Origin: Candidatus Woesearchaeota archaeon | Lineage (GTDB): Archaea; Nanobdellota; Nanobdellia; Woesearchaeales; DSVV01 | Direction of reading: 5' to 3' | NCBI GenBank assembly: GCA_038884615.1 | Contig: JAWABL010000003.1 | Span: 9,038 to 73,037, forward strand | DNA: 64,000 nt | Shown: piece by piece, positions 1,232-57,311 of the stretch | Position numbering within the stretch: position 1 is the stretch's first letter | Layout of the letters: the number at the start of each line of letters is the position of its first letter | The notes under the pieces: generated by a model | Told to the model about the DNA's origin: nothing | The model's database searches: none | Seen by the model: the letters and a program-made list of their open reading frames with translations, nothing else | Made by a program: the position numbers and the translations under genes

Positions 1232-1489
1232 CTACACCACATATCTATAATATATACTCTCTCCGGCAGTCGGGCTTTGCCTTATAATTTTTATTATGTC
1301 GCCTTGTTTAGGATTAAGAGTTTGTATTGCCGGATCATTTACTGATATTTTAGGCAACTGCTTATAGTTAAGATTGTATTTTGAAAGAAGCTCGTCTTTT
1401 TCCTTCTGGTTAAGCTTAATATGCTTCGGCACTAGTACATGAAGCCTTACATCAAAATTTGGTTTTTTTCTGCTGCGTTTTTTCGCCAT
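1232..1489 (-). CDS. rpoH: DNA-directed RNA polymerase subunit H (Rpb5-like)
   Basis: 85-aa ORF. Conserved RpoH motifs are present (HVLVPKHIKL..., LPKI..DP, KQGDIIKIIRQSPTAGESIYYRYVV). Its position immediately upstream of rpoB'' fits the archaeal operon. Confidence 0.88.
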   Translation of the reverse strand: MAKKRSRKKPNFDVRLHVLVPKHIKLNQKEKDELLSKYNLNYKQLPKISVNDPAIQTLNPKQGDIIKIIRQSPTAGESIYYRYVV

Positions 1490-1573: not shown

Positions 1574-1661
1574 TGGGCCGGACGAGATTCGAACTCGCGA
1601 CCACCCGATGCCCGCCCTAAATGTTAAAAGTCGGGTGCTCCACCAGCTAAGCTACCGGCCC
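1574..1661 (-). tRNA. tRNA-Lys (anticodon UUU) with a ~15-nt intron at the canonical 37/38 position
   Basis: Reverse complement reads GGGCCGG-TA-GCTT-AGCTGGTG-GAGC-A-CCCGA-CTTTTAA-[CATTTAGGGCGGGCA]-TCGGG-TGGTC-GCGAG-TTCGAAT-CTCGT-CCGGCCC-A. The cloverleaf is complete with 7/7 acceptor pairs. The anticodon stem CCCGA/TCGGG only closes if the 15-nt insert is removed. Confidence 0.7.
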
Positions 1662-1674
1662 GGGTTAGTATAAA

Positions 1675-1793
1675 CGCCCTGGCCGGGACTTCCAAAAACC
1701 CCAAATAAATTTTTAGGGTGTTTTATCTTTTTTTTGAACCCGGGTCGAAGCCTCGACAGGGCTTCATGATAGGCCGGACTACACTACCAGGGC
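1675..1793 (-). tRNA. tRNA-Asp (anticodon GUC) interrupted by a ~44-nt intron in the T-loop (non-canonical position, about 58/59/60)
   Basis: 5' part (1793 down to 1733): GCCCTGG-TA-...-AAGCC-CTGTCGA-GGCTT-CGAC-CCGGG-TTCAAA. 3' part (1688 down to 1675): T-CCCGG-CCAGGGC-G. The T-stem (CCGGG/CCCGG) and the acceptor stem (GCCCTGG/CCAGGGC) are formed across a ~44-nt A/T-rich insert at 1689-1732. Confidence 0.65.
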
Positions 1794-1981
1794 ATCAGCT
1801 CAAACAACTGTTAAAAATCCTTCTAGCATCTAAATACAAATTATAAATGCTTATTTTTGACATTGGAATGCTAGAAAGATTTTTCATGAATTAATGCTAA
1901 CTTTTTTCTCTATTTATAAACCTATCGGATTTTCAGGATATTTCCAGCATAATTATTTTAAGCATAATTTCTTAAGAATAA

Positions 1982-2932
1982 TTAACAGATTCTGGGCACG
2001 ACTTCTCCTGTAGGCATTTCAAGAAATCTCTGTCCCACTGGGGTATTAATAATAAGGTCATTTTTTGTTATCTCACCAATAACCGCGGCTGTTTTGTTAA
2101 ATTGTTTTAGTTTTTTAAGTACAAGCCTCGCATTATTTTTTTTACAAACCAATATCGCTCGTCCCTCGCATGCAAGGCTAAAAGGGTCGACACCAAGCAA
2201 TTTACAGATAGCAGAAACCGGTTTTGATATAGGCACTGCTTTTTCATTTATCAAGACGCCTACTTTGTTTTTTGTAGCAAGCTCAGCAATGCACGCAGAA
2301 ATTCCGCCACGCGTTGGGTCTTTTGCTTGTTTAATAAGATGTATAACCGACATTAACTCTGGCATTATATTTTTGCAGTCGCTTTTTATTTTTGATTCAA
2401 ACTTAAACCTTTCAGCAAGCAAAGCAGCTCCATGCTCAGCAATGTTTCCTGTTACAATTATTTGGTCTCCTATCTCAAGTTTTTTTGTAAGTTGCCTTTT
2501 TATCCTCCCTATTCCTGATGTATTTATGATTAATCCGTCAAGGGTTTTTTTTGGCATTACTTTGGTGTCGCCGGTGACAACAGGGACATTTGCTTTTTCA
2601 GCTTCTTTATGTATAGAACCAATAATAAACATAAGTCTTTCTTCTGAAAAACCTTCCTCAATTACAAGGCCAAGTGAAATGCCGACAGGCTCAGCACCTG
2701 AGACAACCAGGTCGTTTATTGTGCCACAAACAGCAAGCTTGCCTATGTCTCCGCCTGGAAAAAACAATGGGCTTATAGTATAGCTGTCAGTAGTAAAAGC
2801 GATATCACCGAAAAAAGCAGAATCGCCGTCAGAATTGAACCACTTGCCTGTGCTTCCAAGCACTTTTCTTATTCTAGCAACAAGCTCGTGCATTTCTTTT
2901 CCGCCTGCGCCGTGATGTAAGCCAATGTTCAT
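1982..2932 (-). CDS. hypE: Hydrogenase maturation protein HypE
   Basis: 316-aa ORF with HypE/AIR-synthase-related fold motifs (MNIGLHHGAGGKEMHELV..., C-terminal PRIC). Confidence 0.9.
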   Translation of the reverse strand: MNIGLHHGAGGKEMHELVARIRKVLGSTGKWFNSDGDSAFFGDIAFTTDSYTISPLFFPGGDIGKLAVCGTINDLVVSGAEPVGISLGLVIEEGFSEERLMFIIGSIHKEAEKANVPVVTGDTKVMPKKTLDGLIINTSGIGRIKRQLTKKLEIGDQIIVTGNIAEHGAALLAERFKFESKIKSDCKNIMPELMSVIHLIKQAKDPTRGGISACIAELATKNKVGVLINEKAVPISKPVSAICKLLGVDPFSLACEGRAILVCKKNNARLVLKKLKQFNKTAAVIGEITKNDLIINTPVGQRFLEMPTGEVVPRIC

Positions 2933-3199
2933 TTTACAAAATCTTATAACAAAAATTTTATAATAATAATTTAAATAACACTCTAATATATGTAGACATA
3001 TCTACTAATTTTGAATTTACATTGCTACATTTATTTTGCTATACTATATTAACTATTATATATTATACTATACTGTATAATTACTGGATATATAGTATTG
3101 TTAGTGTATACATATCTATTCTAATTATTGCTAGGTATCCCAAATTTCTATAATTTCTATAATATACAAAATATACTATATACTATTATATTGCTATAT

Positions 3200-4219
3200 T
3201 TATTCTGAAAAATATTTATAGTATATGCTACATGATCCCTCAGAGCTGACCATACATGCGCCCATAGGTGTTTGAGGCTTGCATCTTGACTTGAATAAAG
3301 GGCACTCAACAGGGAATATTTTGCCTTTAATTACTTCTCCACACTTACAACCTTTCTGCTCTTTTGCCTTTGGAACTCTTTTAAAAATCTCTTTATATAT
3401 TAGTTTTGCATTTTGACTTGAATACCTCTTCTTTATTTCAAGCCCACTCCTAGGGATTGTTCCTAAACCACGCCATTCTGCATCGCATTTTTCAAAACAT
3501 TCTGCTAAAACAGCCTGTGCCTTTTTGTTGCCTGAGGGATTTACAACCCTCTTGTATTGGTTAAAGACTATATTCTTATTATTTCTTATCATCTTAAGAA
3601 GCATAAGGATTGATTCAAGCATGTCTTCGGGCTCAAACCCAGTTATTGCCTGCGGTTTTTGAATTATCTCATACGGCTTGAGACCGATAATCGCTGAGAC
3701 ATGACCTGGATTAATAAAACAGTCAATTTGTGAAGAATCGGCGACTGCCTTCATTGCCTCGGGCATGGTTTTATGGCAAGAATATACTAAAAGCCCCTTT
3801 TTAATAGCGACGGCTGTCATTGGGGCAGTTGTTTCAAAGCCAATTCCAAAAAAAACAGCATCTTTAAGTTTGAGCGCATCCATAACTGAATAAACAACAT
3901 GCACATTTGCACCATTTGTCCGTGCTTCATCAAGGCTCATTCTTGTACCTGGCACTTTAATCATATCTCCATATGTAGCTACAGCAACACCTGCATTTGC
4001 AAGTGCGATAATATTATCTATATCTTGTTGTGGAGTTACGCAAACAGGGCACCCAGGTCCTGAAATAAGCCTAACATTAGAAGGAAGAACATTCCTGAGT
4101 CCATACTTTGCAGCTGTTACAGTATGAGTACCACAAACTTCCATTATGTTTACTTGTCTTTCTATTTTTCTTGCTTCAACTCTTATTTTTTCAATAAGTG
4201 CATCAAACCTACGATTCAT
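3200..4219 (-). CDS. hypD: Hydrogenase maturation protein HypD
   Basis: Contains the signature GPGCPVC and the CGTHT motif. The listed ORF begins at 4270, but the likely start is the internal Met (MNRRFDALIEK...) at 4219, which abuts the hypC stop. Confidence 0.88.
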   Translation of the reverse strand: MNRRFDALIEKIRVEARKIERQVNIMEVCGTHTVTAAKYGLRNVLPSNVRLISGPGCPVCVTPQQDIDNIIALANAGVAVATYGDMIKVPGTRMSLDEARTNGANVHVVYSVMDALKLKDAVFFGIGFETTAPMTAVAIKKGLLVYSCHKTMPEAMKAVADSSQIDCFINPGHVSAIIGLKPYEIIQKPQAITGFEPEDMLESILMLLKMIRNNKNIVFNQYKRVVNPSGNKKAQAVLAECFEKCDAEWRGLGTIPRSGLEIKKRYSSQNAKLIYKEIFKRVPKAKEQKGCKCGEVIKGKIFPVECPLFKSRCKPQTPMGACMVSSEGSCSIYYKYFSE

Positions 4220-4424
4220 CCTCAATACTCTCCCAAAAAGTAATCTTTTCTTCTGCACTTTTTTTTTCAATTATTTGTATAGCAAATCCTGCGTGTACAA
4301 GAACAAAGTCGCCTAGTTTAGCATCAACAAAATCAAGCATTATTTCCTTTTTTACTCCACCAAAATCAACAACTGCAATATTTCCATTCTTTTCAAGCAC
4401 TTTTCCAGGTATTGCAAGGCACAT
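4209..4424 (-). CDS. hypC: Hydrogenase maturation protein HypC
   Basis: The canonical HypC N-terminus MCLAIPGKV begins at 4424. The ORF-track start at 4508 is probably an upstream extension. Confidence 0.85.
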   Translation of the reverse strand: MCLAIPGKVLEKNGNIAVVDFGGVKKEIMLDFVDAKLGDFVLVHAGFAIQIIEKKSAEEKITFWESIEDES

Positions 4425-4557
4425 ACAAAGCAAGTAAATCTGAGTAATATAAATATATAGCACAAATATATCTTTTTTGATTACTATCAAATAATAGTTC
4501 CAAAACATTTATATGCAGTAAGATATAACCGAATGTTTTAAAGTTGGGGGGTCAAGC

Positions 4558-7500
4558 GTGAATAAGAGAGTCGCTTTTAAGCGCTTAGATTATCTACTTA
4601 CAAAAAGGTTTTCCTTGTATATTCTAGTTTTATTTTTTTCGTTTTTTTCGCATAAAGCATTAGCTAGTACACAGAACTTCCCTCCTAACCAACCACAGAT
4701 TTTAACACCCGACGGTCAGGTAGAGACAGATGTGCTTTTCAAAAACATAAATTTTAATGTCACAGACAGCGATAATACAGTTCTTTCATGTAAGATGTAT
4801 GTTAACGGCACCGGCAATGTTAGCAATTCAACCACAAGGAACAATACTCAAACATGGCTAAATCTCAGCGTTGCTGCATGTGGATACTATGTATACTACA
4901 TCAACTGCAGTGATGGTGAGTTTTATAACATTTCCGCGACTCAGTGGATTCTTTTTAATTACAGTATTGATTCAACACCGCCCATAATAGGCTCTGTAGA
5001 GAATGTATCTATAACAAACTCAAGCGCCATTATAAAGTGGATAACAGACGATATAAGCAACTCAACAGTCTATTATGGCACAACACAATTATTAGGGAGC
5101 AGTTCATACAACGCAACTATGACAAACAATCATTCTGTTCTTTTAACAGATCTAAGTAACAATACTTTATATTACTACAATGTAAGCTCATGTAACAGTG
5201 CCGGCTATTGCAGTGTTTCATTGCAATACTCTTTCACAACAGAGCAGAACTTTATTCCTGGACCTGTTATATCAAATGTGTTGAACATCTCAATTACCAA
5301 CACAACAGCGGTGGTGACCTGGGAAACTGACCTTCCTACGGATTCGCTTGTAAAGTATGGTATGTCAAGCGGCATTTACTCTGAAAACATATCAAACTCC
5401 ACTTTAACCACAACGCATCTTATAGAACTCACAGGTCTTATGCCTGACACAACATACTACTATGTTGTAAACAGCACAGATGGGAACAGCAATTCAAGCG
5501 AAAGCGATGAGATGAATTTTACTACTGTTGATACGATTCCACCTTCTATAAATTCAGTGTATCTAACAAGCTACTACATCAAAAACAACACGCCTGTTAC
5601 TGTGTATGTAAATGCAACCGACAATCATCTCCTTCAAGTCACTGCCGAAGGCACTCCTCTTGTGCAGAACGGCGATGTCTGGGAGGGTACAATCCCCTTA
5701 AGTTCAAGCCCCCTTGATATTGTTGCTATTGACGAAAGAGGAAACAATGCAACAGACAGCAGCGTGAATTTTGTTGTTGATGGAACGCCCCCCACGATAC
5801 ATTCAATTACAATATCAAAAAAATATGTGAAGAACAACACCAAGGTGGAAATCATTGTAAATGCCAGTGATGCTGTTAATGTAACAGCTGAAGGCACGCC
5901 CCTTAGTAGAGAAGGGGACAGATGGAATGGAACGATAGCTCTTCTTGATACCCCTCCTTGGTTTGTGGATGTTGTTGCATATGACAATGTCAGCAACACC
6001 GCTTTTGATAATTCTCTTTCCTACATAATCGACGACATTGCGCCGATTATAAACAGTATCATCCTTTCCCAGGATTATGTAAGGAACAACACCAATGTAA
6101 CTATATATGTCAATATAACTGAATCATCAATAAGTAATGTCAGCGCAGACGATGTTCTTTTAAGCGAAATAAATGGAATATGGAGTGGAGCAATACTTCT
6201 TAAGGACATTGGGCAGCCCACCTTTGTTACTGTAGAGGTATATGATAATGCAGGCAATTTCTTACAGAACACAAACACAACATTCATTGTTGACGAACAA
6301 AACCCTCAGATAAATAGCGTCACAATTTCTGACGGATATGTTTCGACAGGACAAAAAATCCTAGTTACGGTTAACGCTACAGATACGAGAATGCAGTCTG
6401 TAACCGCCAACTCACTTGAGATGATAAACACATCGCCAAGCATCTGGTTTTTAAATCTAACAATACCCTCTTCAAGCGGAACAATAACGATACTTGCAAC
6501 CGATGCGGCTGGCAACACCAAAAGCAATAGCTCTGCCAGTTTTGTGGTTGATAACACCGCGCCTGTAATAAGCATAGCAGAACCACAAAACAATTCATTC
6601 TACTCAAAAAACAATATAACATTCAATTTTAGTGTTTATGAATCAAACCTTTCAAGCGTGAACATAACCATTGACAACAAGAGATACTACGGCAGTTCAA
6701 TAAATGGTAGTCAGACAGCAAATTTTACCGATCTTTGTGCCGGAATGCACAAAGCTGTCTTAACAGCGATAGACGAAGCGGAAAATAAAGCAACCAAAAC
6801 CATTAGATTTACTATTGCAGCGCCACTCAATGTGACACAAAAGCTTAATGAGCTTAAGAGTGAGATTGGACTATCGGCAGTAAACATAAGCCTTAAAAAA
6901 AATGAGACTGAACTTTATGGAAACGAGTCTGTAGATATAAATGGAACTCTTTCTCTTGAAATAAATCTGAATGTATCAGGTATCAATGGAAGCATACGCA
7001 TACATGGATTTAATGGTCTTAATGCAGACTGGGATACCGCTTTCTACGCAGATACAAATGCAAGCAGCGAAGAAACGATGAAAGCTACCCAACGCTCAGG
7101 CACTGAGATAGAATATTTTGTTCTCATTAAAAATACAACTGAGTTCATAGAGGATACTTACTATGACCTTGCAGTTATTGTGTTCAACACTGCGCTAAAC
7201 GGCCGCGATGTATTATTTATAGGAGATGATAATGGCGAGGATATATATAAACTACATAACTGCACATCCACCCCCTCTGTAGTCTCAAGCTTATCCGATG
7301 CGTGTTATATTGAGACAGAGCATAATGTCACATTATATCTTCCACACTTTTCAGGAGGAGCAATCGCAAACGATACACTACCCCCAATAATAAATATCAG
7401 CTCGCCGGAAAATGCTACAATAATACAGAACAGCTATTTTGATTTTGAATTTTCTGTGTACGAAGCGAATCCGAACAACTTTAGTCTCTGCAATTATTCA

Positions 7501-8805
7501 GTTTTCAACGGCACAGATATAGTTTATTATGATTATGATATTGAGTATTTAGATATGACAAATAATGGCAGCACACTCTATGAAAAAAGAATACGATTAT
7601 ATGATTTAGCAAATGGAACATATTATTTTAATTTAAGCTGCCAGGACATGAACAATCAGTCGTCTAATCTTAGTTATATCTTTTTTGTCAACGACACTAT
7701 AGAACCTGAGATAACAAGTATAGGTCCCACTGGCTTACAAACAAGCTCTACAACAAGCAAGGTTATTACTATATCAGCGATTACTGATGAAAACAGCTAT
7801 TGTAGGTATGCTACAAGCAACCTGAGCTATTTTGAGATGACAGAACCTCTCGGCTCATTCGGCACATCACATACAACCCAGATAACATACAACTCAGATG
7901 CAAGCGTAACGATGTATGTAAGATGCATTGATGTAAATGGTATTGAGTCTGTTGCAGGTGTAATCTCCTATACAGTAGATGTTGGTATTTCAAGCAGTGG
8001 AAAAAGCACCAATGTAGGAAGCAGTGGAGGAGGCATAATAGGGAATGCAACCACCATAGAGGTCTTTGCATGGTCAAAAACACTAAAGAACATAACTGCT
8101 GAGAATTCTATCTCAATCTTGGTTACCAATAAAGACCTTTCCATAACCGAATTAAAGTTTGTACCTGTTACTGAGGTTCCAAATGCATACATCTACATCA
8201 GAGAAACAAAAGAGAAACCAGAGCGGTCCGGAGAGTTTTTGCAAGGCGTAAGTGTTTATAGATATATAAAAATAGTAGATGATAGTTTTAGAAACATAAG
8301 TGGCGCGGTTATTGATTTCAGGGTTGAAAAGTCCTGGCTTGAAGCTAATCAACTAAAACAGAACAATGTCGGTCTTTACAGGCTTTCCAGCACAGAAGGA
8401 GAGGGCAAATGGGTTTTACAAAATACAAGCAAGACAAGCGAGGATGGCCAATATATTTATTACAGAGCGAATACTACCGGCCTTAGCTATTTTGCTATTG
8501 GCGGAAAGCACGCAAAAGACGAATTAAATCAAGACTCTACATCTGTTTTTAATGAGCAGATGGACGACCCCTCCAACCAAAGTAACATAAATGAAAATGC
8601 AGAAATGAATACCAAGGAAATAGAGAGTGCAAGTCAAGAAGGAAACATACAGATCTCTGCTCCTGTACCTAAAATAAAAATTGAAACAAAGAGAAAGATA
8701 AGCATTTCTTGGCTTATTGCCTTTATATTAATTATAATAGTTCTGGCTGTCGCATCAATAATATATGTAACTAAGATATATGTGAACAGAGAAGGGGGTT
8801 TCTAG
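4558..8805 (+). CDS. Giant (1415-aa) secreted surface protein. Sec signal peptide, two FN3-like domains, five or more tandem Ig-like repeats, a C-terminal TM anchor, and extremely dense N-x-S/T sequons. Probable S-layer or surface glycoprotein.
   Basis: GTG start. N-terminal hydrophobic signal (LYILVLFFSFFSHKALA). FN3-like segments (PPIIGSVENVSITNSSAIIKW...YYYNVSS). Repeated ~95-aa units (TIPPSINSVYLTSYYIKNNTPVTVYVNATD...AEGTPL...G.W.GTI). C-terminal ISWLIAFILIIIVLAVASIIYV followed by a basic tail. Confidence 0.8.
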   Translation: MNKRVAFKRLDYLLTKRFSLYILVLFFSFFSHKALASTQNFPPNQPQILTPDGQVETDVLFKNINFNVTDSDNTVLSCKMYVNGTGNVSNSTTRNNTQTWLNLSVAACGYYVYYINCSDGEFYNISATQWILFNYSIDSTPPIIGSVENVSITNSSAIIKWITDDISNSTVYYGTTQLLGSSSYNATMTNNHSVLLTDLSNNTLYYYNVSSCNSAGYCSVSLQYSFTTEQNFIPGPVISNVLNISITNTTAVVTWETDLPTDSLVKYGMSSGIYSENISNSTLTTTHLIELTGLMPDTTYYYVVNSTDGNSNSSESDEMNFTTVDTIPPSINSVYLTSYYIKNNTPVTVYVNATDNHLLQVTAEGTPLVQNGDVWEGTIPLSSSPLDIVAIDERGNNATDSSVNFVVDGTPPTIHSITISKKYVKNNTKVEIIVNASDAVNVTAEGTPLSREGDRWNGTIALLDTPPWFVDVVAYDNVSNTAFDNSLSYIIDDIAPIINSIILSQDYVRNNTNVTIYVNITESSISNVSADDVLLSEINGIWSGAILLKDIGQPTFVTVEVYDNAGNFLQNTNTTFIVDEQNPQINSVTISDGYVSTGQKILVTVNATDTRMQSVTANSLEMINTSPSIWFLNLTIPSSSGTITILATDAAGNTKSNSSASFVVDNTAPVISIAEPQNNSFYSKNNITFNFSVYESNLSSVNITIDNKRYYGSSINGSQTANFTDLCAGMHKAVLTAIDEAENKATKTIRFTIAAPLNVTQKLNELKSEIGLSAVNISLKKNETELYGNESVDINGTLSLEINLNVSGINGSIRIHGFNGLNADWDTAFYADTNASSEETMKATQRSGTEIEYFVLIKNTTEFIEDTYYDLAVIVFNTALNGRDVLFIGDDNGEDIYKLHNCTSTPSVVSSLSDACYIETEHNVTLYLPHFSGGAIANDTLPPIINISSPENATIIQNSYFDFEFSVYEANPNNFSLCNYSVFNGTDIVYYDYDIEYLDMTNNGSTLYEKRIRLYDLANGTYYFNLSCQDMNNQSSNLSYIFFVNDTIEPEITSIGPTGLQTSSTTSKVITISAITDENSYCRYATSNLSYFEMTEPLGSFGTSHTTQITYNSDASVTMYVRCIDVNGIESVAGVISYTVDVGISSSGKSTNVGSSGGGIIGNATTIEVFAWSKTLKNITAENSISILVTNKDLSITELKFVPVTEVPNAYIYIRETKEKPERSGEFLQGVSVYRYIKIVDDSFRNISGAVIDFRVEKSWLEANQLKQNNVGLYRLSSTEGEGKWVLQNTSKTSEDGQYIYYRANTTGLSYFAIGGKHAKDELNQDSTSVFNEQMDDPSNQSNINENAEMNTKEIESASQEGNIQISAPVPKIKIETKRKISISWLIAFILIIIVLAVASIIYVTKIYVNREGGF
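5510..6630 (+). repeat. Intragenic tandem array of about 5 diverged ~285-bp (95-aa) Ig-like repeat units within the surface protein
   Basis: Recurring peptide pattern D.(T/I)PP.I.S(V/I).(L/I)(S/T)..Y(V/I).NNT.V.(V/I)YVNA(T/S)D...V(T/S)AEGTPL...GD.W.GTI across successive units. Confidence 0.55.
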
Positions 8806-9332: not shown

Positions 9333-9791
9333 TTATTGGTCTTTTTTAATATTATTTTTTTTGACTATTATATTCTCTCCACAACGAACTCTTCCGCCTA
9401 TTACGACCTGCGCGAATATACCTTCTTTTGGCATTATACAACTGCCAGCTAATTTTGCAATTTTGCACGGCGCATGGCACTCCTTTCCAATCTTTGATAC
9501 TCTAAGCACCACTCTACCTATCTGCAAGAGGCACCCTATTTTCAATTTATGAAGCTTGACTCCCTTTGTCGTCAGATTTTCGCCAAAGCTTCCATGCTTA
9601 AAGCAGTGCATGCTTGTTGAGCTTTTCTTGAACCTTTCATAGGATTCAACAGCAAGCAGTGAAACTTGCCTTTTTCCTGGAGAAGCGTGAACATCGCCTT
9701 TTAATCCATAGTTTTTAATAAATACAGCGGTTTTAACAGGACGCTTCCTCCCTTTCACACGGCTTATGTTTATGGACACTATTTTCGCCAA
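9333..9791 (-). CDS. MOSC (MoCo sulfurase C-terminal) domain protein
   Basis: 152 aa, MOSC-like beta-barrel signature (LKGDVHAS...ENLTT.G). Last gene of the Moco operon, overlapping the end of moeA. Confidence 0.7.
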   Translation of the reverse strand: MAKIVSINISRVKGRKRPVKTAVFIKNYGLKGDVHASPGKRQVSLLAVESYERFKKSSTSMHCFKHGSFGENLTTKGVKLHKLKIGCLLQIGRVVLRVSKIGKECHAPCKIAKLAGSCIMPKEGIFAQVVIGGRVRCGENIIVKKNNIKKDQ

Positions 9792-11722
9792 ACAACTTCA
9801 CCGATATCACAAGGCACAACAATTCCAACTGATCTCTGAAGTGTTTTTTTAAACGAGTCTGATTTAAGTATCTCAATGAACTTCCGCACTGATGGCTTTT
9901 GGAGACTCTCTGTGTTTACGCAAAAATCGTAGTTTTCGCCTCTTAGCGGAATAAAAAACAGGTCATAGTTTACCGCAACAGCTTTTATCGCTATACCCCA
10001 GTCTGCTTTTCCCTGTGAAATCTTAGCGGCAACTGCTGTGTGAGTGTTGGCTTCAACCTCATAGCCTTTTATCTTCTGTATCAATCTATCAAAATCAAGC
10101 TCTTTACGCTTGCATAAATTCTTTAGAATTATTTCAAGAAGCACTCGCGTCCCGCTGCCTTTGTTTCTATTGATCATTCTATACTTAAAGATAAAGTCTT
10201 CAAGCTTCTTTCCTTTTACACCTTTTCTAAAAACAATTCCTTGCTCTCTCACATAGCCGCGAATAATACTCAGGTTTCTGTGCCTTGCAATAAAGGGAAC
10301 ATTGTAGATGCCGGTCTTCTCATCAAGCAGGTGTACTCCTGCAACATCTGCCTCTCCGCGTGCAGTCGCTTCAATCCCTGCGGTGCTTCCAGCATGCATA
10401 ACCTTGTATGTGAACCCTGATTTCCCAAGCATAGACAAAGCCGGCTCAAGCATTACGCAGTGGCTTCCTATGAAAGTAATATCTACCGGAGATATATTTT
10501 CTGAAAAAAGTTTGACATCAATTAATGAGTCTTTAAGGATTGATTCTGTATTTGTAGGTATCTCAAAGAATCCATCTGCAAATGCAAATGTAGTTATTGA
10601 GCCACTGCTTTTTGATATAGGGTAGGCAAAGATTCCATATTTTCCCTTTACTAAGTTAACAAGAATAAATTCATGCTTCCTCTCGGAATATATTCTCTGT
10701 GCAATCCTAGCCTTGATATGTTTGTGGTCGTATGAGGAAAGCCCTGCCTTAGCAGTTATCAGTGGACTACAAAAAAGCATAAAGGCTATCGCAGCCGAAG
10801 ACGGAAACCCTGGAAGAACAATCACAGGCTTATTTTTTGCCATGCCAAGAACCACTGGCTTGCCCGGCTTCATTGCAACACCATGAACGATAACTTCACC
10901 GACATTTTCAAGCGCCCTGTAGCAAAGGTCGCCCTTCCCGGCAGACGTCCCGCCTGACAAGATTACCATGTCATGCTCAAGACCCTTCAAAATTAAGGAC
11001 TGAATTTCAAGCATATTGTCCCTTGCGATTCCCAAGAACCTAGGCTCTGCAAGATGCTCTCTACACATATCGCAGATGAGTGACGCATTAATATCATATA
11101 TCTTACCTATAGGCAGCTTTTTTCCATGTGGAGATATCTCGTTTCCTGTACTTATCACTGCGACTTTTGGCTTTCTAAATACCTTAACAGTACAAAAACC
11201 TTGCGCAGCAAATACAGCAGATTCCCGCGGACCTATTTTTCGGCCCTTTTGAACAAGCACTTCGCCCTTCATCATGTCAGAGCCAGCGTGCATAACATTC
11301 TCGCCTGGAACCACCGGCCGATATACATTAACATACTCTCCTTCAATTGAAGTATTTTCAACCATAACTATTGCATTTGCACCTGTAGGAATAACTGCGC
11401 CAGTTGAAATTTCAGAGCAGTACCCTTTTAAAATCGCCTTTTTAGGATTTGTGCCAGCGGCTATTTTTTCTCCTGAAAGTTTTATTTTGACTGGTGATTC
11501 TTCGTCAGCGAAAAAAGTGTCTTTCGCGTTTACCGCATAACCATCTCGAGAAGAGCGGTCAAACGGAGGAACATCAATTCTTGCTATCACATCTTCAGCA
11601 AGAACCCTACCAAGAGCGTCAGAAAGAGAAACCCGTTCGGTGCCTATAGGCTCAAGCCCCGCACTTTTAAAAAAGATTTTTTTTGCCTCATCAATCTGCA
11701 TTAAATTATGGAACTCCCTCAA
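9779..11722 (-). CDS. moeA: Molybdopterin molybdenumtransferase MoeA fused to a C-terminal periplasmic-binding-protein-like (ModA/TupA-like) domain
   Basis: The N-terminal ~400 aa carry MoeA motifs (DGYAV, ISTGNEI, GGTSAGKGD, PGKPV). The C-terminal ~240 aa resemble a PBP-type oxyanion-binding fold (GSHCVMLEP...AGVHLLDEKTGIYN). Confidence 0.82.
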   Translation of the reverse strand: MREFHNLMQIDEAKKIFFKSAGLEPIGTERVSLSDALGRVLAEDVIARIDVPPFDRSSRDGYAVNAKDTFFADEESPVKIKLSGEKIAAGTNPKKAILKGYCSEISTGAVIPTGANAIVMVENTSIEGEYVNVYRPVVPGENVMHAGSDMMKGEVLVQKGRKIGPRESAVFAAQGFCTVKVFRKPKVAVISTGNEISPHGKKLPIGKIYDINASLICDMCREHLAEPRFLGIARDNMLEIQSLILKGLEHDMVILSGGTSAGKGDLCYRALENVGEVIVHGVAMKPGKPVVLGMAKNKPVIVLPGFPSSAAIAFMLFCSPLITAKAGLSSYDHKHIKARIAQRIYSERKHEFILVNLVKGKYGIFAYPISKSSGSITTFAFADGFFEIPTNTESILKDSLIDVKLFSENISPVDITFIGSHCVMLEPALSMLGKSGFTYKVMHAGSTAGIEATARGEADVAGVHLLDEKTGIYNVPFIARHRNLSIIRGYVREQGIVFRKGVKGKKLEDFIFKYRMINRNKGSGTRVLLEIILKNLCKRKELDFDRLIQKIKGYEVEANTHTAVAAKISQGKADWGIAIKAVAVNYDLFFIPLRGENYDFCVNTESLQKPSVRKFIEILKSDSFKKTLQRSVGIVVPCDIGEVVWRK

Positions 11723-12969
11723 AATAGATTCACCTCTATGCTTTCGCCGGTGTTGTACCCCTCAACATTTTCTGGAACAACTACAACGCCACTTGCTTCT
11801 GCAACTGTTCTTAGCGCGCTAGCACCTCCAAGCCTGAAAGGTAAAACGCAGTTCCTCTCAATTTTAACTCTAACAAAGTCTGTTCTTCCTGCTTGTGATG
11901 CGATTTTTCCAGTCAGTTTGTATTTCGCCTTACGCAGATGATCAAACGGATTGAAGTCGCACCCTTGCATTTTATATATTGCCGGCCTTACAAAAGCCTC
12001 AAACCCAATGAATGCTCCTACTGGACTGCCAGGAAGAAGAAAGATAGGTTTTTTTTTAACAACACCAAACCCGGCTGGACTTGCAGGGCGCATTGAAACG
12101 CCGTGAAAAACAAGCTTGCCCTCATCCAAAACTACGATAGGCGCGAGATCTTTCTCCCCAACAGATGTACCACCAGTAATTAAGATTATATCTTCAATAC
12201 ATGAAAGAATCGCTTTCTTAATTTTTTCTTTGTCATCCTTTACAATAGGCTTTATAGAAGGCAAAGCTCCAGAATCCTTAGCAAGCGCAGCAAGCATTGG
12301 GCTGTTTGAGTCAATTGTTTTAAACGGCCGTCTCTTTCTGACAATCTCATTACCGGTTGCAATGATCGCCACCGTTGGTTTTTTGAAAACGCGAACTTGT
12401 GTCTTGTTGAGGTTTGCCAAAATGCCTATGTGTTCTGGCCTAATTTTTGTTTTTTTTCTTATTGCAACATCACCTTTTCTGAAATCATCTCCCGCATGGA
12501 TAACATTTTTGCCTGGGGGAACTGCAGCAAATACTTTCACAAGATGGTTTTTCTCCTCAGTGTATTCTGCCATAACAACTGCGTTGGCATTTTTCGGAAG
12601 CATAGCGCCAGTCATTATCTTTATAGTTGTGCCCTGCTTCAGAGCTAGCTTAACTTTTTTTCCAGGAAAGGCCTCACCTACAATAGGCAGCTCAATCGGA
12701 TTTAGAGGGGAAGCACCGAATGTATCCTCGGCGATTACAGCATAACCATCCATTGCAGAACGGCTGAAAAGAGGAATATCAAACCTAGCTACAACATCTT
12801 CCGCAAGTATTCTATTTGGCGCGTTTAATATGTCCACTACTTCGACTTCAAGCTCTGGCGTTGTTCTTTTTACTAGTAGCAAAGCGTCTTGAAAGCGCAT
12901 TTTTTTCAAAAACCCTTTCATCCTAACATCTGTTTTGTCATCTATAAAGTTTTTTGACATAAGACTCAT
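11719..12969 (-). CDS. moeA: Molybdopterin molybdenumtransferase MoeA (second, stand-alone copy)
   Basis: 416 aa with MoeA motifs (MDGYAV, IATGNEIV, GGTSVGEKD, LPGSPVG). Start/stop overlaps its neighbours (operon). Confidence 0.85.
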   Translation of the reverse strand: MSLMSKNFIDDKTDVRMKGFLKKMRFQDALLLVKRTTPELEVEVVDILNAPNRILAEDVVARFDIPLFSRSAMDGYAVIAEDTFGASPLNPIELPIVGEAFPGKKVKLALKQGTTIKIMTGAMLPKNANAVVMAEYTEEKNHLVKVFAAVPPGKNVIHAGDDFRKGDVAIRKKTKIRPEHIGILANLNKTQVRVFKKPTVAIIATGNEIVRKRRPFKTIDSNSPMLAALAKDSGALPSIKPIVKDDKEKIKKAILSCIEDIILITGGTSVGEKDLAPIVVLDEGKLVFHGVSMRPASPAGFGVVKKKPIFLLPGSPVGAFIGFEAFVRPAIYKMQGCDFNPFDHLRKAKYKLTGKIASQAGRTDFVRVKIERNCVLPFRLGGASALRTVAEASGVVVVPENVEGYNTGESIEVNLF

Positions 12970-56809: not shown

Positions 56810-57203
56810 TTTTTTTCTGTAGCTAGCATAGCATAAAAACAGATGCAACCTAAAAAAGGAAGAAAAACCGCCGCGAGAGGGACACTCACCAGATGCACGA
56901 ACATAAGATTCTAACCGACGACATATAGTTATTATTATGTATAATGCATTCCGAATTTGAACCCTCAATGCCTTGCGGCACAGGATCTTTGTCCGGTAAA
57001 GTAGGCATCATACCCACAATGACCAAAATGTTTAGCTGGGCATTCGCAAATGAAACCAAATCAAACATTTTGAACTCATTTATTCACGCTTGTTCATCTG
57101 CGAAAAAAGCATGTGGATAGCAATCCTGCGCTCTACCAGGTTAAGCGATCGCGGCTTGGTTTTTGAGGTAATTGGGCTGCTTTATAAATATTTTGAAGCA
57201 ATC

Positions 57204-57236: not shown

Positions 57237-57311
57237 AGCGGGATAGGGCAGTCAGGAGTGCCCGATGGGCTCATAACCCATAGGTCGATGGTTCAAATCC
57301 ATCTCCCGCTA
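57237..57311 (+). tRNA. Initiator tRNA-Met (anticodon CAU)
   Basis: AGCGGGA-TA-GGGC-AGTCAGGAGT-GCCC-G-ATGGG-CTCATAA-CCCAT-AGGTC-GATGG-TTCAAAT-CCATC-TCCCGCT-A. The A1:U72 pair and three G-C pairs at the base of the anticodon stem are hallmarks of the archaeal initiator. Confidence 0.8.

Follow-up and report, generated by a model that had tools for sequence, protein, structure and literature searches.

The window, by which we mean the whole 64-kb stretch of DNA that was analysed, contains a complete pre-tRNA-Asp(GUC) gene on its minus strand (1675–1793), recognised from the sequence and from the ARAGORN call on its spliced product, and including the discriminator G at 1675. Read from 1793 to 1675, the minus-strand RNA is GCCCUGG UA GUGU AGUCCGGCCU AUCAU G AAGCC CUGUCGA GGCUU CGAC CCGGG UUCAAAAAAAAGAUAAAACACCCUAAAAAUUUAUUUGGGGUUUUUGGAAGU CCCGG CCAGGGC G. 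The 5′ exon (1733–1793, minus strand), delimited from the call on the spliced product, corresponds to tRNA positions 1 to 59 and comprises the 5′ strand of the acceptor stem, the D arm, the anticodon arm with GUC, a variable region of 4 nt, the T-stem strand CCGGG, and U54 U55 C56 A57 A58 A59. The 3′ exon (1675–1688, minus strand) consists of U60, the T-stem strand CCCGG (1687–1683), the acceptor strand CCAGGGC (1682–1676) and the discriminator G. Between positions 59 and 60 lies an intron of 44 nt (1689–1732, minus strand; coordinates derived from the splice and from folds) with the sequence AAAAAGAUAAAACACCCUAAAAAUUUAUUUGGGGUUUUUGGAAG, within which folding places an inner hairpin, ACCCUAAA/UUUGGGGU. 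The acceptor stem pairs as GCCCUGG/CCAGGGC, the D arm carries G18 G19, and the anticodon arm is AAGCC-CUGUCGA-GGCUU. The two halves of the T stem, CCGGG (1743–1739) and CCCGG, are 51 nt apart in the gene, as compared with 7 nt in a normal tRNA.

Excision of 1689–1732 generates the T loop UUCAAAU and a product of 75 nt that ARAGORN calls as tRNA-Asp(gtc), and that contains all the universal tRNA nucleotides (U8, G18 G19, U54 U55 C56, the G53-C61 pair and the discriminator G73). Removal of this segment, then, restores the cloverleaf, as is expected for an EndA-dependent (BHB) tRNA intron. These data agree with the original prediction, which had proposed a tRNA-Asp(GUC) with these limits and exon parts and with an intron of 44 nt at around T-loop position 58 to 60; the site can now be fixed at 59/60. 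The unspliced gene received no ARAGORN call on the genomic sequence and no Rfam match, either at the gathering threshold or at E ≤ 1, so that standard finders, at least these two, do miss the gene as had been anticipated. The precursor folds with −43.8 kcal/mol (z = −3.0), and none of 200 shuffled sequences folded as well. A split or permuted tRNA gene was considered and rejected, since the exons are contiguous, collinear and on one strand.

Neighbouring genes and host lineage

A gene for tRNA-Lys(UUU), found by ARAGORN and Rfam, is situated 13 nt downstream of tRNA-Asp (1574–1661, minus strand) and contains an intron of 15 nt at 37/38 (1610–1624). The coordinates of this gene and the length of its intron coincide with those first proposed; its description as a canonical intron holds for the position alone, its BHB being degenerate. 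Shifting the intron to produce another anticodon (e.g. Pro) was rejected, because such a reading puts C at position 37 and because every syntenic orthologue is Lys(UUU). Among relatives, tRNA-Lys has from zero to three introns, at the D loop, 37/38 and 59/60. The tRNA-Lys gene belongs to a conserved Asp-Lys-rpoH cluster: adjoining the tRNA genes there is an ORF of 85 aa (1232–1489, minus strand) that corresponds to RNA polymerase subunit H (RpoH).

The structural scan of the window also revealed a tRNA-Ser(GCU) gene (57155 to 56869, minus strand) with two introns, one of 131 nt at 37/38 and another of 73 nt at 59/60; once spliced, this tRNA-Ser(GCU) has 83 nt and is accepted by ARAGORN. Of the window's five tRNA genes, at least two were missed by the generic finders (ARAGORN, Rfam).

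The window RpoH is 100% identical to a protein encoded on a 75-kb contig of a Candidatus Woesearchaeota archaeon MAG (P0001), and the next-best matches are 62–66% identical. Two of the better matches, P0011 and P0030, are labelled Nanoarchaeia and Woesearchaeota, respectively; the GC content is around 38%. Because of this full identity, the host is, as judged from RpoH, a member of the Woesearchaeota and hence a DPANN archaeon, and its gene set is not euryarchaeal. The surprise that the original prediction had seen in finding the intron beside a euryarchaeal-type gene set was, with this host, overrated.

Structure of the splice sites

The end of the intron pairs with the beginning of the T loop. 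U54 U55 C56 A57 (1735–1738, minus strand) form the 5′ strand of a central helix, H, and its 3′ strand, UGGA (1694–1691, minus strand), is made of the intron nucleotides directly before the 3′ bulge; the register was taken from 23 genes. Folds and orthologues agree on a bulge A-G/U at the 3′ splice site (1688–1690, minus strand), where the cut would fall after G1689, with U1688 becoming U60; this position was deduced because of the EndA cleavage rule and the need for a T loop of 7 nt. The 5′ splice site would lie within A58 A59/A (1732–1734, minus strand), with the predicted cut between 1733 and 1732.

The interiors of the introns were too divergent to be aligned, and we therefore used per-sequence folds together with a fixed-register alignment of a 24-nt core. 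All 23 intron-bearing orthologues among the matches listed contain a 3-nt bulge, A[G/A/C]U, ending in U60 and next to the 3′ strand of the T stem. In each of them the intron tetranucleotide preceding this bulge is paired with U54 U55 C56 R57, H having four pairs in 19 of the genes and three pairs in the other four. In the fixed-register alignment of orthologues, 96.9% of the H cells were paired; for the T stem and H together the figure was 98.6%, which none of 500 shuffles matched, and sliding the partner register gave pairing of at most 69%. Additionally, the pair between position 57 and its partner covaries, from A-U to G-C, in three distinct sequences. A 3′ site, consisting of a 3-nt bulge between the exon helix h and the 4-bp H, was thus found in the window fold and in 23 of 23 orthologues.

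The 5′ site is less strict. In only 5 of the 23 genes, the window gene among them, can it be drawn as a clean 3-nt bulge running straight into helix h′, and per-sequence folds of the remaining ones place an asymmetric internal loop there, with 3–5 nt opposite 1–2 nt. For the window, the strict conformer (bulge A58 A59 A, h′ AAAA/UUUU) has −13.1 kcal/mol versus −18.7 kcal/mol for the minimum, i.e. 5.6 kcal/mol above it. In the MFE fold, pairing between the A and U runs lengthens H to 7 bp, at pair probabilities around 0.8, and the 5′ site is bulged solely in the alternative conformer, by slippage of the A run. When ten T arms with their introns were aligned with MAFFT, the RNAalifold consensus contained no more than the T stem, an extended H and the 3′ bulge. 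Since the 5′ bulge is clean in so few genes and the strict conformer of the window is unfavourable, the tRNA-Asp motif is, on these modelled folds, most suitably regarded as relaxed (hBH-like), its 3′ half being canonical, and it fits the relaxed class (hBH/BHL) and not the strict 3-4-3 arrangement. The BHB originally expected at the junctions stands, then, as a BHB-type structure whose 3′ half is canonical throughout and whose 5′ end can be drawn as a strict motif in a minority of genes.

This arrangement has the layout of a canonical BHB intron at 37/38, moved to the T arm, with the intron between the sixth and seventh loop nucleotides. In both cases H joins loop nucleotides one to four with the 3′ end of the intron, and the 3′ bulge lies directly against the exon stem. 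Unlike with the canonical intron, the T-arm location means that splicing has to precede formation of the T loop and the elbow, and the 5′ bulge is degenerate.

Distribution and conservation of the intron

We scanned one genome per GTDB species with the 20-nt anticodon arm as a query, obtaining at least 119 loci, whose frequencies are not population estimates. At least 94 of the tRNA-Asp genes are intron-less, mostly from Methanomassiliicoccales, other Thermoplasmatota and Methanosarcinales, and at least 23 loci (the window and at least 22 other genomes) have an insert of 18–54 nt at 59/60, a count that takes in the window, L001, L003 and the partly parsed L051 and L116. At least five tRNA-Asp genes have a D-loop intron, and L051 combines a D-loop intron with one at 59/60.

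The gene order tRNA-Asp, tRNA-Lys, rpoH was found in about 40 related loci among the matches listed. It is shared with the window by every intron-bearing locus whose fetched sequence extends that far, which is the case for all but L043. Likewise, the contigs encoding the RpoH homologues P0002 and P0007 have the order tRNA-Asp, tRNA-Lys, rpoH, rpoB, and contain inserts at the same site of the T loop with unrelated sequences. Each intron-bearing locus bears one of two labels, Woesearchaeota/Nanoarchaeota or 'uncultured Methanosarcinales (binchicken)'. The second of these is probably mistaken, since the RpoH and RpoB′ of these loci are 43–78% identical to those of the window and the synteny is the same.

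Exon identity was about 95% over the 21 complete intron-bearing orthologues, a value inflated by the fact that 20 of the 75 exon bases are fixed by the search pattern, although the other 55 bases still show about 93%. The intron interiors of the window subclade, in contrast, were 0.50 identical versus 0.47 for shuffled introns. The comparison of these sequences indicates that the exons are under purifying selection and that the intron is constrained at its splice-site-forming ends only. Exon conservation beside randomised intron interiors therefore argues for a functional gene and not an assembly artefact.

In a neighbour-joining tree of RpoB′ (first ~410 residues, drawn without support values), the intron was present in all ten members of the window subclade; the wider group was mostly intron-bearing, and the outer Woesearchaeota-like lineages lacked the intron. 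The simplest reading of this distribution is that the tRNA-Asp intron is old and common to a Woesearchaeales subclade, with one early gain that would have been followed by some losses.

Proposed splicing and candidate endonucleases

Taken together, these results make it very likely that the locus is a functional Woesearchaeota tRNA-Asp(GUC) gene, split at 59/60 by a protein-spliced, BHB-type intron of 44 nt. In the precursor, the 3′ end of the intron, UGGA, pairs with U54-A57, leaving the 3-nt bulge AG/U beside the T stem in the geometry of a canonical 3′ site, with the 5′ site, A59/A, located four base pairs across from it. The tRNA-splicing endonuclease EndA would then cut at both sites and the exons would be joined by the RtcB ligase, generating the predicted junction ...GGGUUCAAA/UCCCGG.... 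The CCA would be added after ligation, because none is encoded at the 3′ end of tRNA-Asp. Counting against this proposal is a run of five U residues inside the intron, a possible weak terminator of the archaeal oligo-U type.

The original prediction held that such an intron needs an endonuclease of relaxed specificity. This is plausible in view of the loose 5′ site in the modelled folds; the position alone would not require one. A tblastn search with the M. jannaschii EndA, a query sequence validated against PDB 1a79, covered the 64-kb window and some 0.9 Mb of fetched loci and found no EndA gene. We retrieved from the database one EndA homologue labelled Woesearchaeota (P0216, 211 aa) and four labelled Nanoarchaeota (P0164, P0168, P0172 and P0215, 170–206 aa), all of them with both EndA Pfam domains and with the catalytic Tyr115, His125 and Lys156 conserved. 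These homologues are single-unit, alpha-type proteins, several with a Lys-rich N-terminal extension; in the few that were aligned, comparison with the M. jannaschii EndA showed no C-terminal 'L3' insertion. They are tied to the window genome by lineage only.

Alternative explanations

A decaying pseudogene would look similar at first sight, namely a tRNA-Asp killed by the insertion of 44 nt in its T loop, with a functional tRNA-Asp elsewhere. The locus is, after all, uncalled by generic tRNA finders, and the MFE fold of the window lacks a clean 5′ bulge. Nevertheless, a search for a second tRNA-Asp (ARAGORN and structural scan) found none in the 64-kb window, the exons have been preserved across the 21 complete orthologues while the intron interiors became randomised, and the insert occupies the same nucleotide in at least 23 loci, keeping a covarying helix and the 3-nt 3′ bulge; furthermore, none of the intron-bearing assemblies occurs twice among the matches listed. 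We thus consider decay to be very unlikely. Even less room is left for an artefact of assembly or a chimera, with the 44 nt absent from the real genome. A search of the metagenome contig collection with the 29-nt core of the window intron found no matches, leaving the exact sequence without a second, independent assembly. However, at least 22 other genomes, assembled independently in different projects, contain inserts at this very site with different sequences and the same junction structure, and the tRNA-Ser of the same window has a similar T-loop insert, leaving the artefact a negligible probability.

The insert might instead be another kind of element, removed or used by means other than EndA, such as a group I or group II self-splicing intron, a miniature transposable element or a C/D box guide RNA. 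There is precedent for the last of these, the tRNA-Trp intron of Haloferax being known to encode a C/D box RNA. Group I introns, moreover, occur in archaeal rRNA and tRNA genes, including those of DPANN (PMC6125680). Yet the 44 nt of the window intron, and the 18–54 nt of its relatives, are far below the size of a group I or group II core, typically above 200 nt, and no Rfam family matched at E ≤ 1. Inspection by eye showed neither a C box (UGAUGA) nor a D box (CUGA) in the intron, which also lacks terminal inverted repeats and a target duplication, and conservation is confined to the ends that form the junction. An element of this sort is, accordingly, extremely improbable, and a functional tRNA-Asp gene with a protein-spliced intron continues to be the preferred reading.

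Relation to known tRNA introns

Position 59/60 is a recognised major site, the commonest among non-canonical introns, and it is textbook knowledge that archaeal BHB motifs also lie in acceptor stems and in D and T loops (PMC6379350). The site has already been published for DPANN, so that a tRNA-Asp case was to be expected in this lineage. The original statement that introns of the 59/60 type come mainly from Thermoproteales and a few deep-branching lineages consequently needs correction (PMC3239211; PMC5829648). In the DPANN archaeon ARMAN-2, pre-tRNA-Cys has a 13-nt intron at 59/60 with a relaxed hBH motif, which is cleaved in vitro by its own EndA, and pre-tRNA-Pro has introns at 53/54 and 59/60 (PMC3239211). 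ARMAN-2 thus shares with our case the superphylum, the 59/60 site and the 3′ bulge beside the T stem, and its tRNA-Cys has an hBH motif like that of most Woesearchaeota tRNA-Asp introns. The differences are that the gene described here is a tRNA-Asp and that its intron is longer, with 44 nt and an inner hairpin. Additionally, the ARMAN-2 EndA is a three-unit, epsilon2 enzyme, whereas the homologues labelled Woesearchaeota/Nanoarchaeota are single-unit proteins of 170–211 aa.

Many disrupted tRNA genes have been described for DPANN, Ca. Woesearchaeota archaeon RBG_13_36_6 included, and that study links non-canonical and multiple tRNA introns in these archaea to an alpha4-type EndA bearing the L3 loop (Kaneta et al. 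2018, PMC5829648). The window belongs to the same phylum-level group, and its gene provides one concrete example; the text available from Kaneta et al. gives genome-level proportions, without this gene or its conservation. The single-unit, alpha-type homologues found here agree with that study; the L3 loop was not visible in those aligned.

Among Thermoproteales and other Crenarchaeota, non-canonical BHB introns are cut by an (alpha-beta)2 EndA (Marck and Grosjean 2003; Sugahara et al. 2008). Their introns lie in the D loop, the anticodon loop and the T loop, a single gene having as many as three, with relaxed hBH/HBh′ motifs and 59/60 as a major site, all of which resembles our case. The differences are that these organisms, thermophiles of another superphylum, have GC-rich tRNAs and introns that are mostly shorter, and possess a heterotetrameric EndA with a crenarchaeal-specific loop. 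A tRNA gene from a red alga contains three BHB-type introns, at D, anticodon and T positions, as does tRNA-Lys in L003, L082 and L096, although in a eukaryote and with another endonuclease composition.

Considered alone, the window gene has little weight, as it adds one more non-canonical, protein-spliced archaeal tRNA intron in a superphylum known for its disrupted tRNA genes. A broader and rather doubtful proposal is that Woesearchaeales possess a single-subunit (alpha4-like) EndA and yet routinely splice relaxed hBH introns, both those at 59/60 or 37/38 and those of the D loop. If this were true, the tRNA-Asp intron at 59/60 would be ancient and clade-inherited, kept through tens of species-level lineages, and the breadth of substrates would originate from outside the known CSL/ASL loops, with the Lys-rich N-terminal extension of EndA as a candidate. 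It would also extend a hint by Kaneta et al. 2018 (PMC5829648), according to which specificity does not depend on the type of subunit. The 23 orthologous introns, with their invariant 3′ site and loose 5′ site, constitute a substrate panel for the recognition of relaxed motifs by DPANN single-unit EndAs.

Without intron-aware archaeal models, tRNA counts for Woesearchaeota MAGs will come out too low, which bears on the 'missing' tRNAs reported in Nanobdellota genomes (bioRxiv 10.64898/2026.05.13.725050).

Upstream region of the tRNA cluster

A BRE/TATA-like element, AGGTTTATAAA, is located 130 nt upstream of the 5′ end of tRNA-Asp (1913–1923, minus strand) and was identified by motif conservation. 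The sequence AAnnTTT[A/T]TAAA occurs at −107 to −142 of tRNA-Asp in 27 of 37 related loci among the matches listed. This element could be the promoter of the tRNA cluster. RNAalifold predicted no structure on the upstream leader; a helix picked by eye and then tested directly showed that the leader, of around 100 nt, contains a conserved long-range helix with covariation.

Introns in the tRNA-Lys and tRNA-Asp genes

The number and position of introns vary among the loci related to the window (designated by L-numbers), in both tRNA-Lys and tRNA-Asp. Across 38 Woesearchaeota-like loci among the matches listed, tRNA-Lys contains from zero to three introns, in every combination. In L003 (positions 2941-3105), L082 and L096, the tRNA-Lys(UUU) gene next to tRNA-Asp has three introns: one following G18 G19 in the D loop, one at 37/38 and one at 59/60. 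The T-loop introns of tRNA-Lys in these relatives end in the motif xGAA-A(G/A)U, the same as the tRNA-Asp introns. Additionally, tRNA-Asp of L026, L034, L051, L072 and L113 carries a D-loop intron of roughly 23-42 nt, inserted between G18 G19 and (C)UAUCAU; this intron coexists with a T-loop intron in L051, and replaces it in the other four loci.

The tRNA-Lys gene of the window (1574-1661, minus strand) contains a single 15-nt intron (1610-1624) that is canonical in its position (37/38) but not in its structure. If GC|A is taken as the 3' bulge, C-G, U-G, U x C and U-G would make up the central helix of the bulge-helix-bulge (BHB) splice motif, and the 5' site lands in the terminal loop; RNAfold predicts a different, non-BHB fold. 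In the tRNA-Lys orthologues of L058 and L117 the intron measures 14 nt and has a proper CUUU/GAAG helix.

Besides tRNA-Asp, the window includes a second hidden disrupted tRNA gene (56869-57155, minus strand), divergent relative to a tRNA-Met at 57237-57311; it encodes a tRNA-Ser(GCU) whose variable arm is long. Its first intron (56987-57117, 131 nt) is located at 37/38, and the second (56883-56955, 73 nt) at 59/60, in the T loop, where the central helix is UUCA/UGAG and the 3' bulge is UGU. ARAGORN called the 83-nt spliced product as tRNA-Ser(gct); the unspliced genomic sequence in the window yielded no call with either ARAGORN or Rfam.

Several single-unit homologues of the tRNA-splicing endonuclease EndA (database proteins P0216, labelled Woesearchaeota; P0215, labelled Nanoarchaeota; P0184, P0186 and P0219) display a Lys-rich N-terminal extension of 20-40 residues, which is absent from the EndA of M. 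jannaschii and might constitute an extra RNA-binding surface.

A conserved leader upstream of tRNA-Asp

The BRE/TATA-like element AGGTTTATAAA occurs upstream of tRNA-Asp in the window (1913-1923, minus strand), and the conserved form AAnnTTT[A/T]TAAA was found in 27 of the 37 related loci among the matches listed, at about -107 to -142 from the gene. The spacing between this element and the tRNA-Asp 5' end is almost the same throughout, at about 130 nt, which implies a leader that is unusually long (~100 nt) and conserved in length. Within the leader, AAUCUUUCUAGCAU and AUGCUAGAAGGAUU form a long-range helix (1868-1881 with 1816-1829, minus strand) enclosing about 38 nt. Its core, AAUCYUUCUA / UAGAAGGAUU, is kept in 14 related loci, with 85.7% of the cells paired, both sides changed in five of the ten pairs, and a covariation score matched by none of 500 shuffles. 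The helix could correspond to a processing stem or to a small RNA.

Taxonomic labels of related MAGs

Thirteen GTDB representative MAGs (L010, L018, L020, L030, L040, L044, L058, L078, L102, L103, L109, L119 and L122) are titled 'uncultured Methanosarcinales archaeon (binchicken...)'. All of them contain the tRNA-Asp, tRNA-Lys, rpoH synteny, and most also contain the non-canonical introns. Compared with the Woesearchaeota window, their RpoH products are 43-62% identical, and RpoB' reaches up to 78% identity; moreover, the tRNA-Asp of L058 is nearly identical to that of L117, the Woesearchaeota chromosome OY970338.1. Judging from these comparisons, the Methanosarcinales label is probably wrong.

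Possible mobile-element traces and other genes

The last 15-30 nt of tRNA-Lys are directly repeated 75-130 nt downstream of the gene in L001 (about 570-770, e.g. AUCCCCCUG(G/A)GCCCAUCGUUAAAAAC), L026 and L113. This repeat looks like an att-site scar, putatively left by an element formerly integrated at the tRNA 3' end. In L003, a close relative, the tRNA-Asp/Lys cluster is preceded, at a distance of about 1 kb, by an ORF for a LAGLIDADG-type homing endonuclease (PF14528; 1127-1867).

Judged by their translations, the genes upstream of the tRNA cluster of the window (1982-4508, minus strand) resemble the hydrogenase maturation genes hypE, hypD and hypC; they are followed by a 1415-aa Asn/Ser/Thr-rich product with a C-terminal transmembrane segment (4558-8805, plus strand), probably a surface protein. 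Two MoeA-like ORFs and one MOSC-like ORF, tentatively recognized in the same way, occupy positions 9333-12969.
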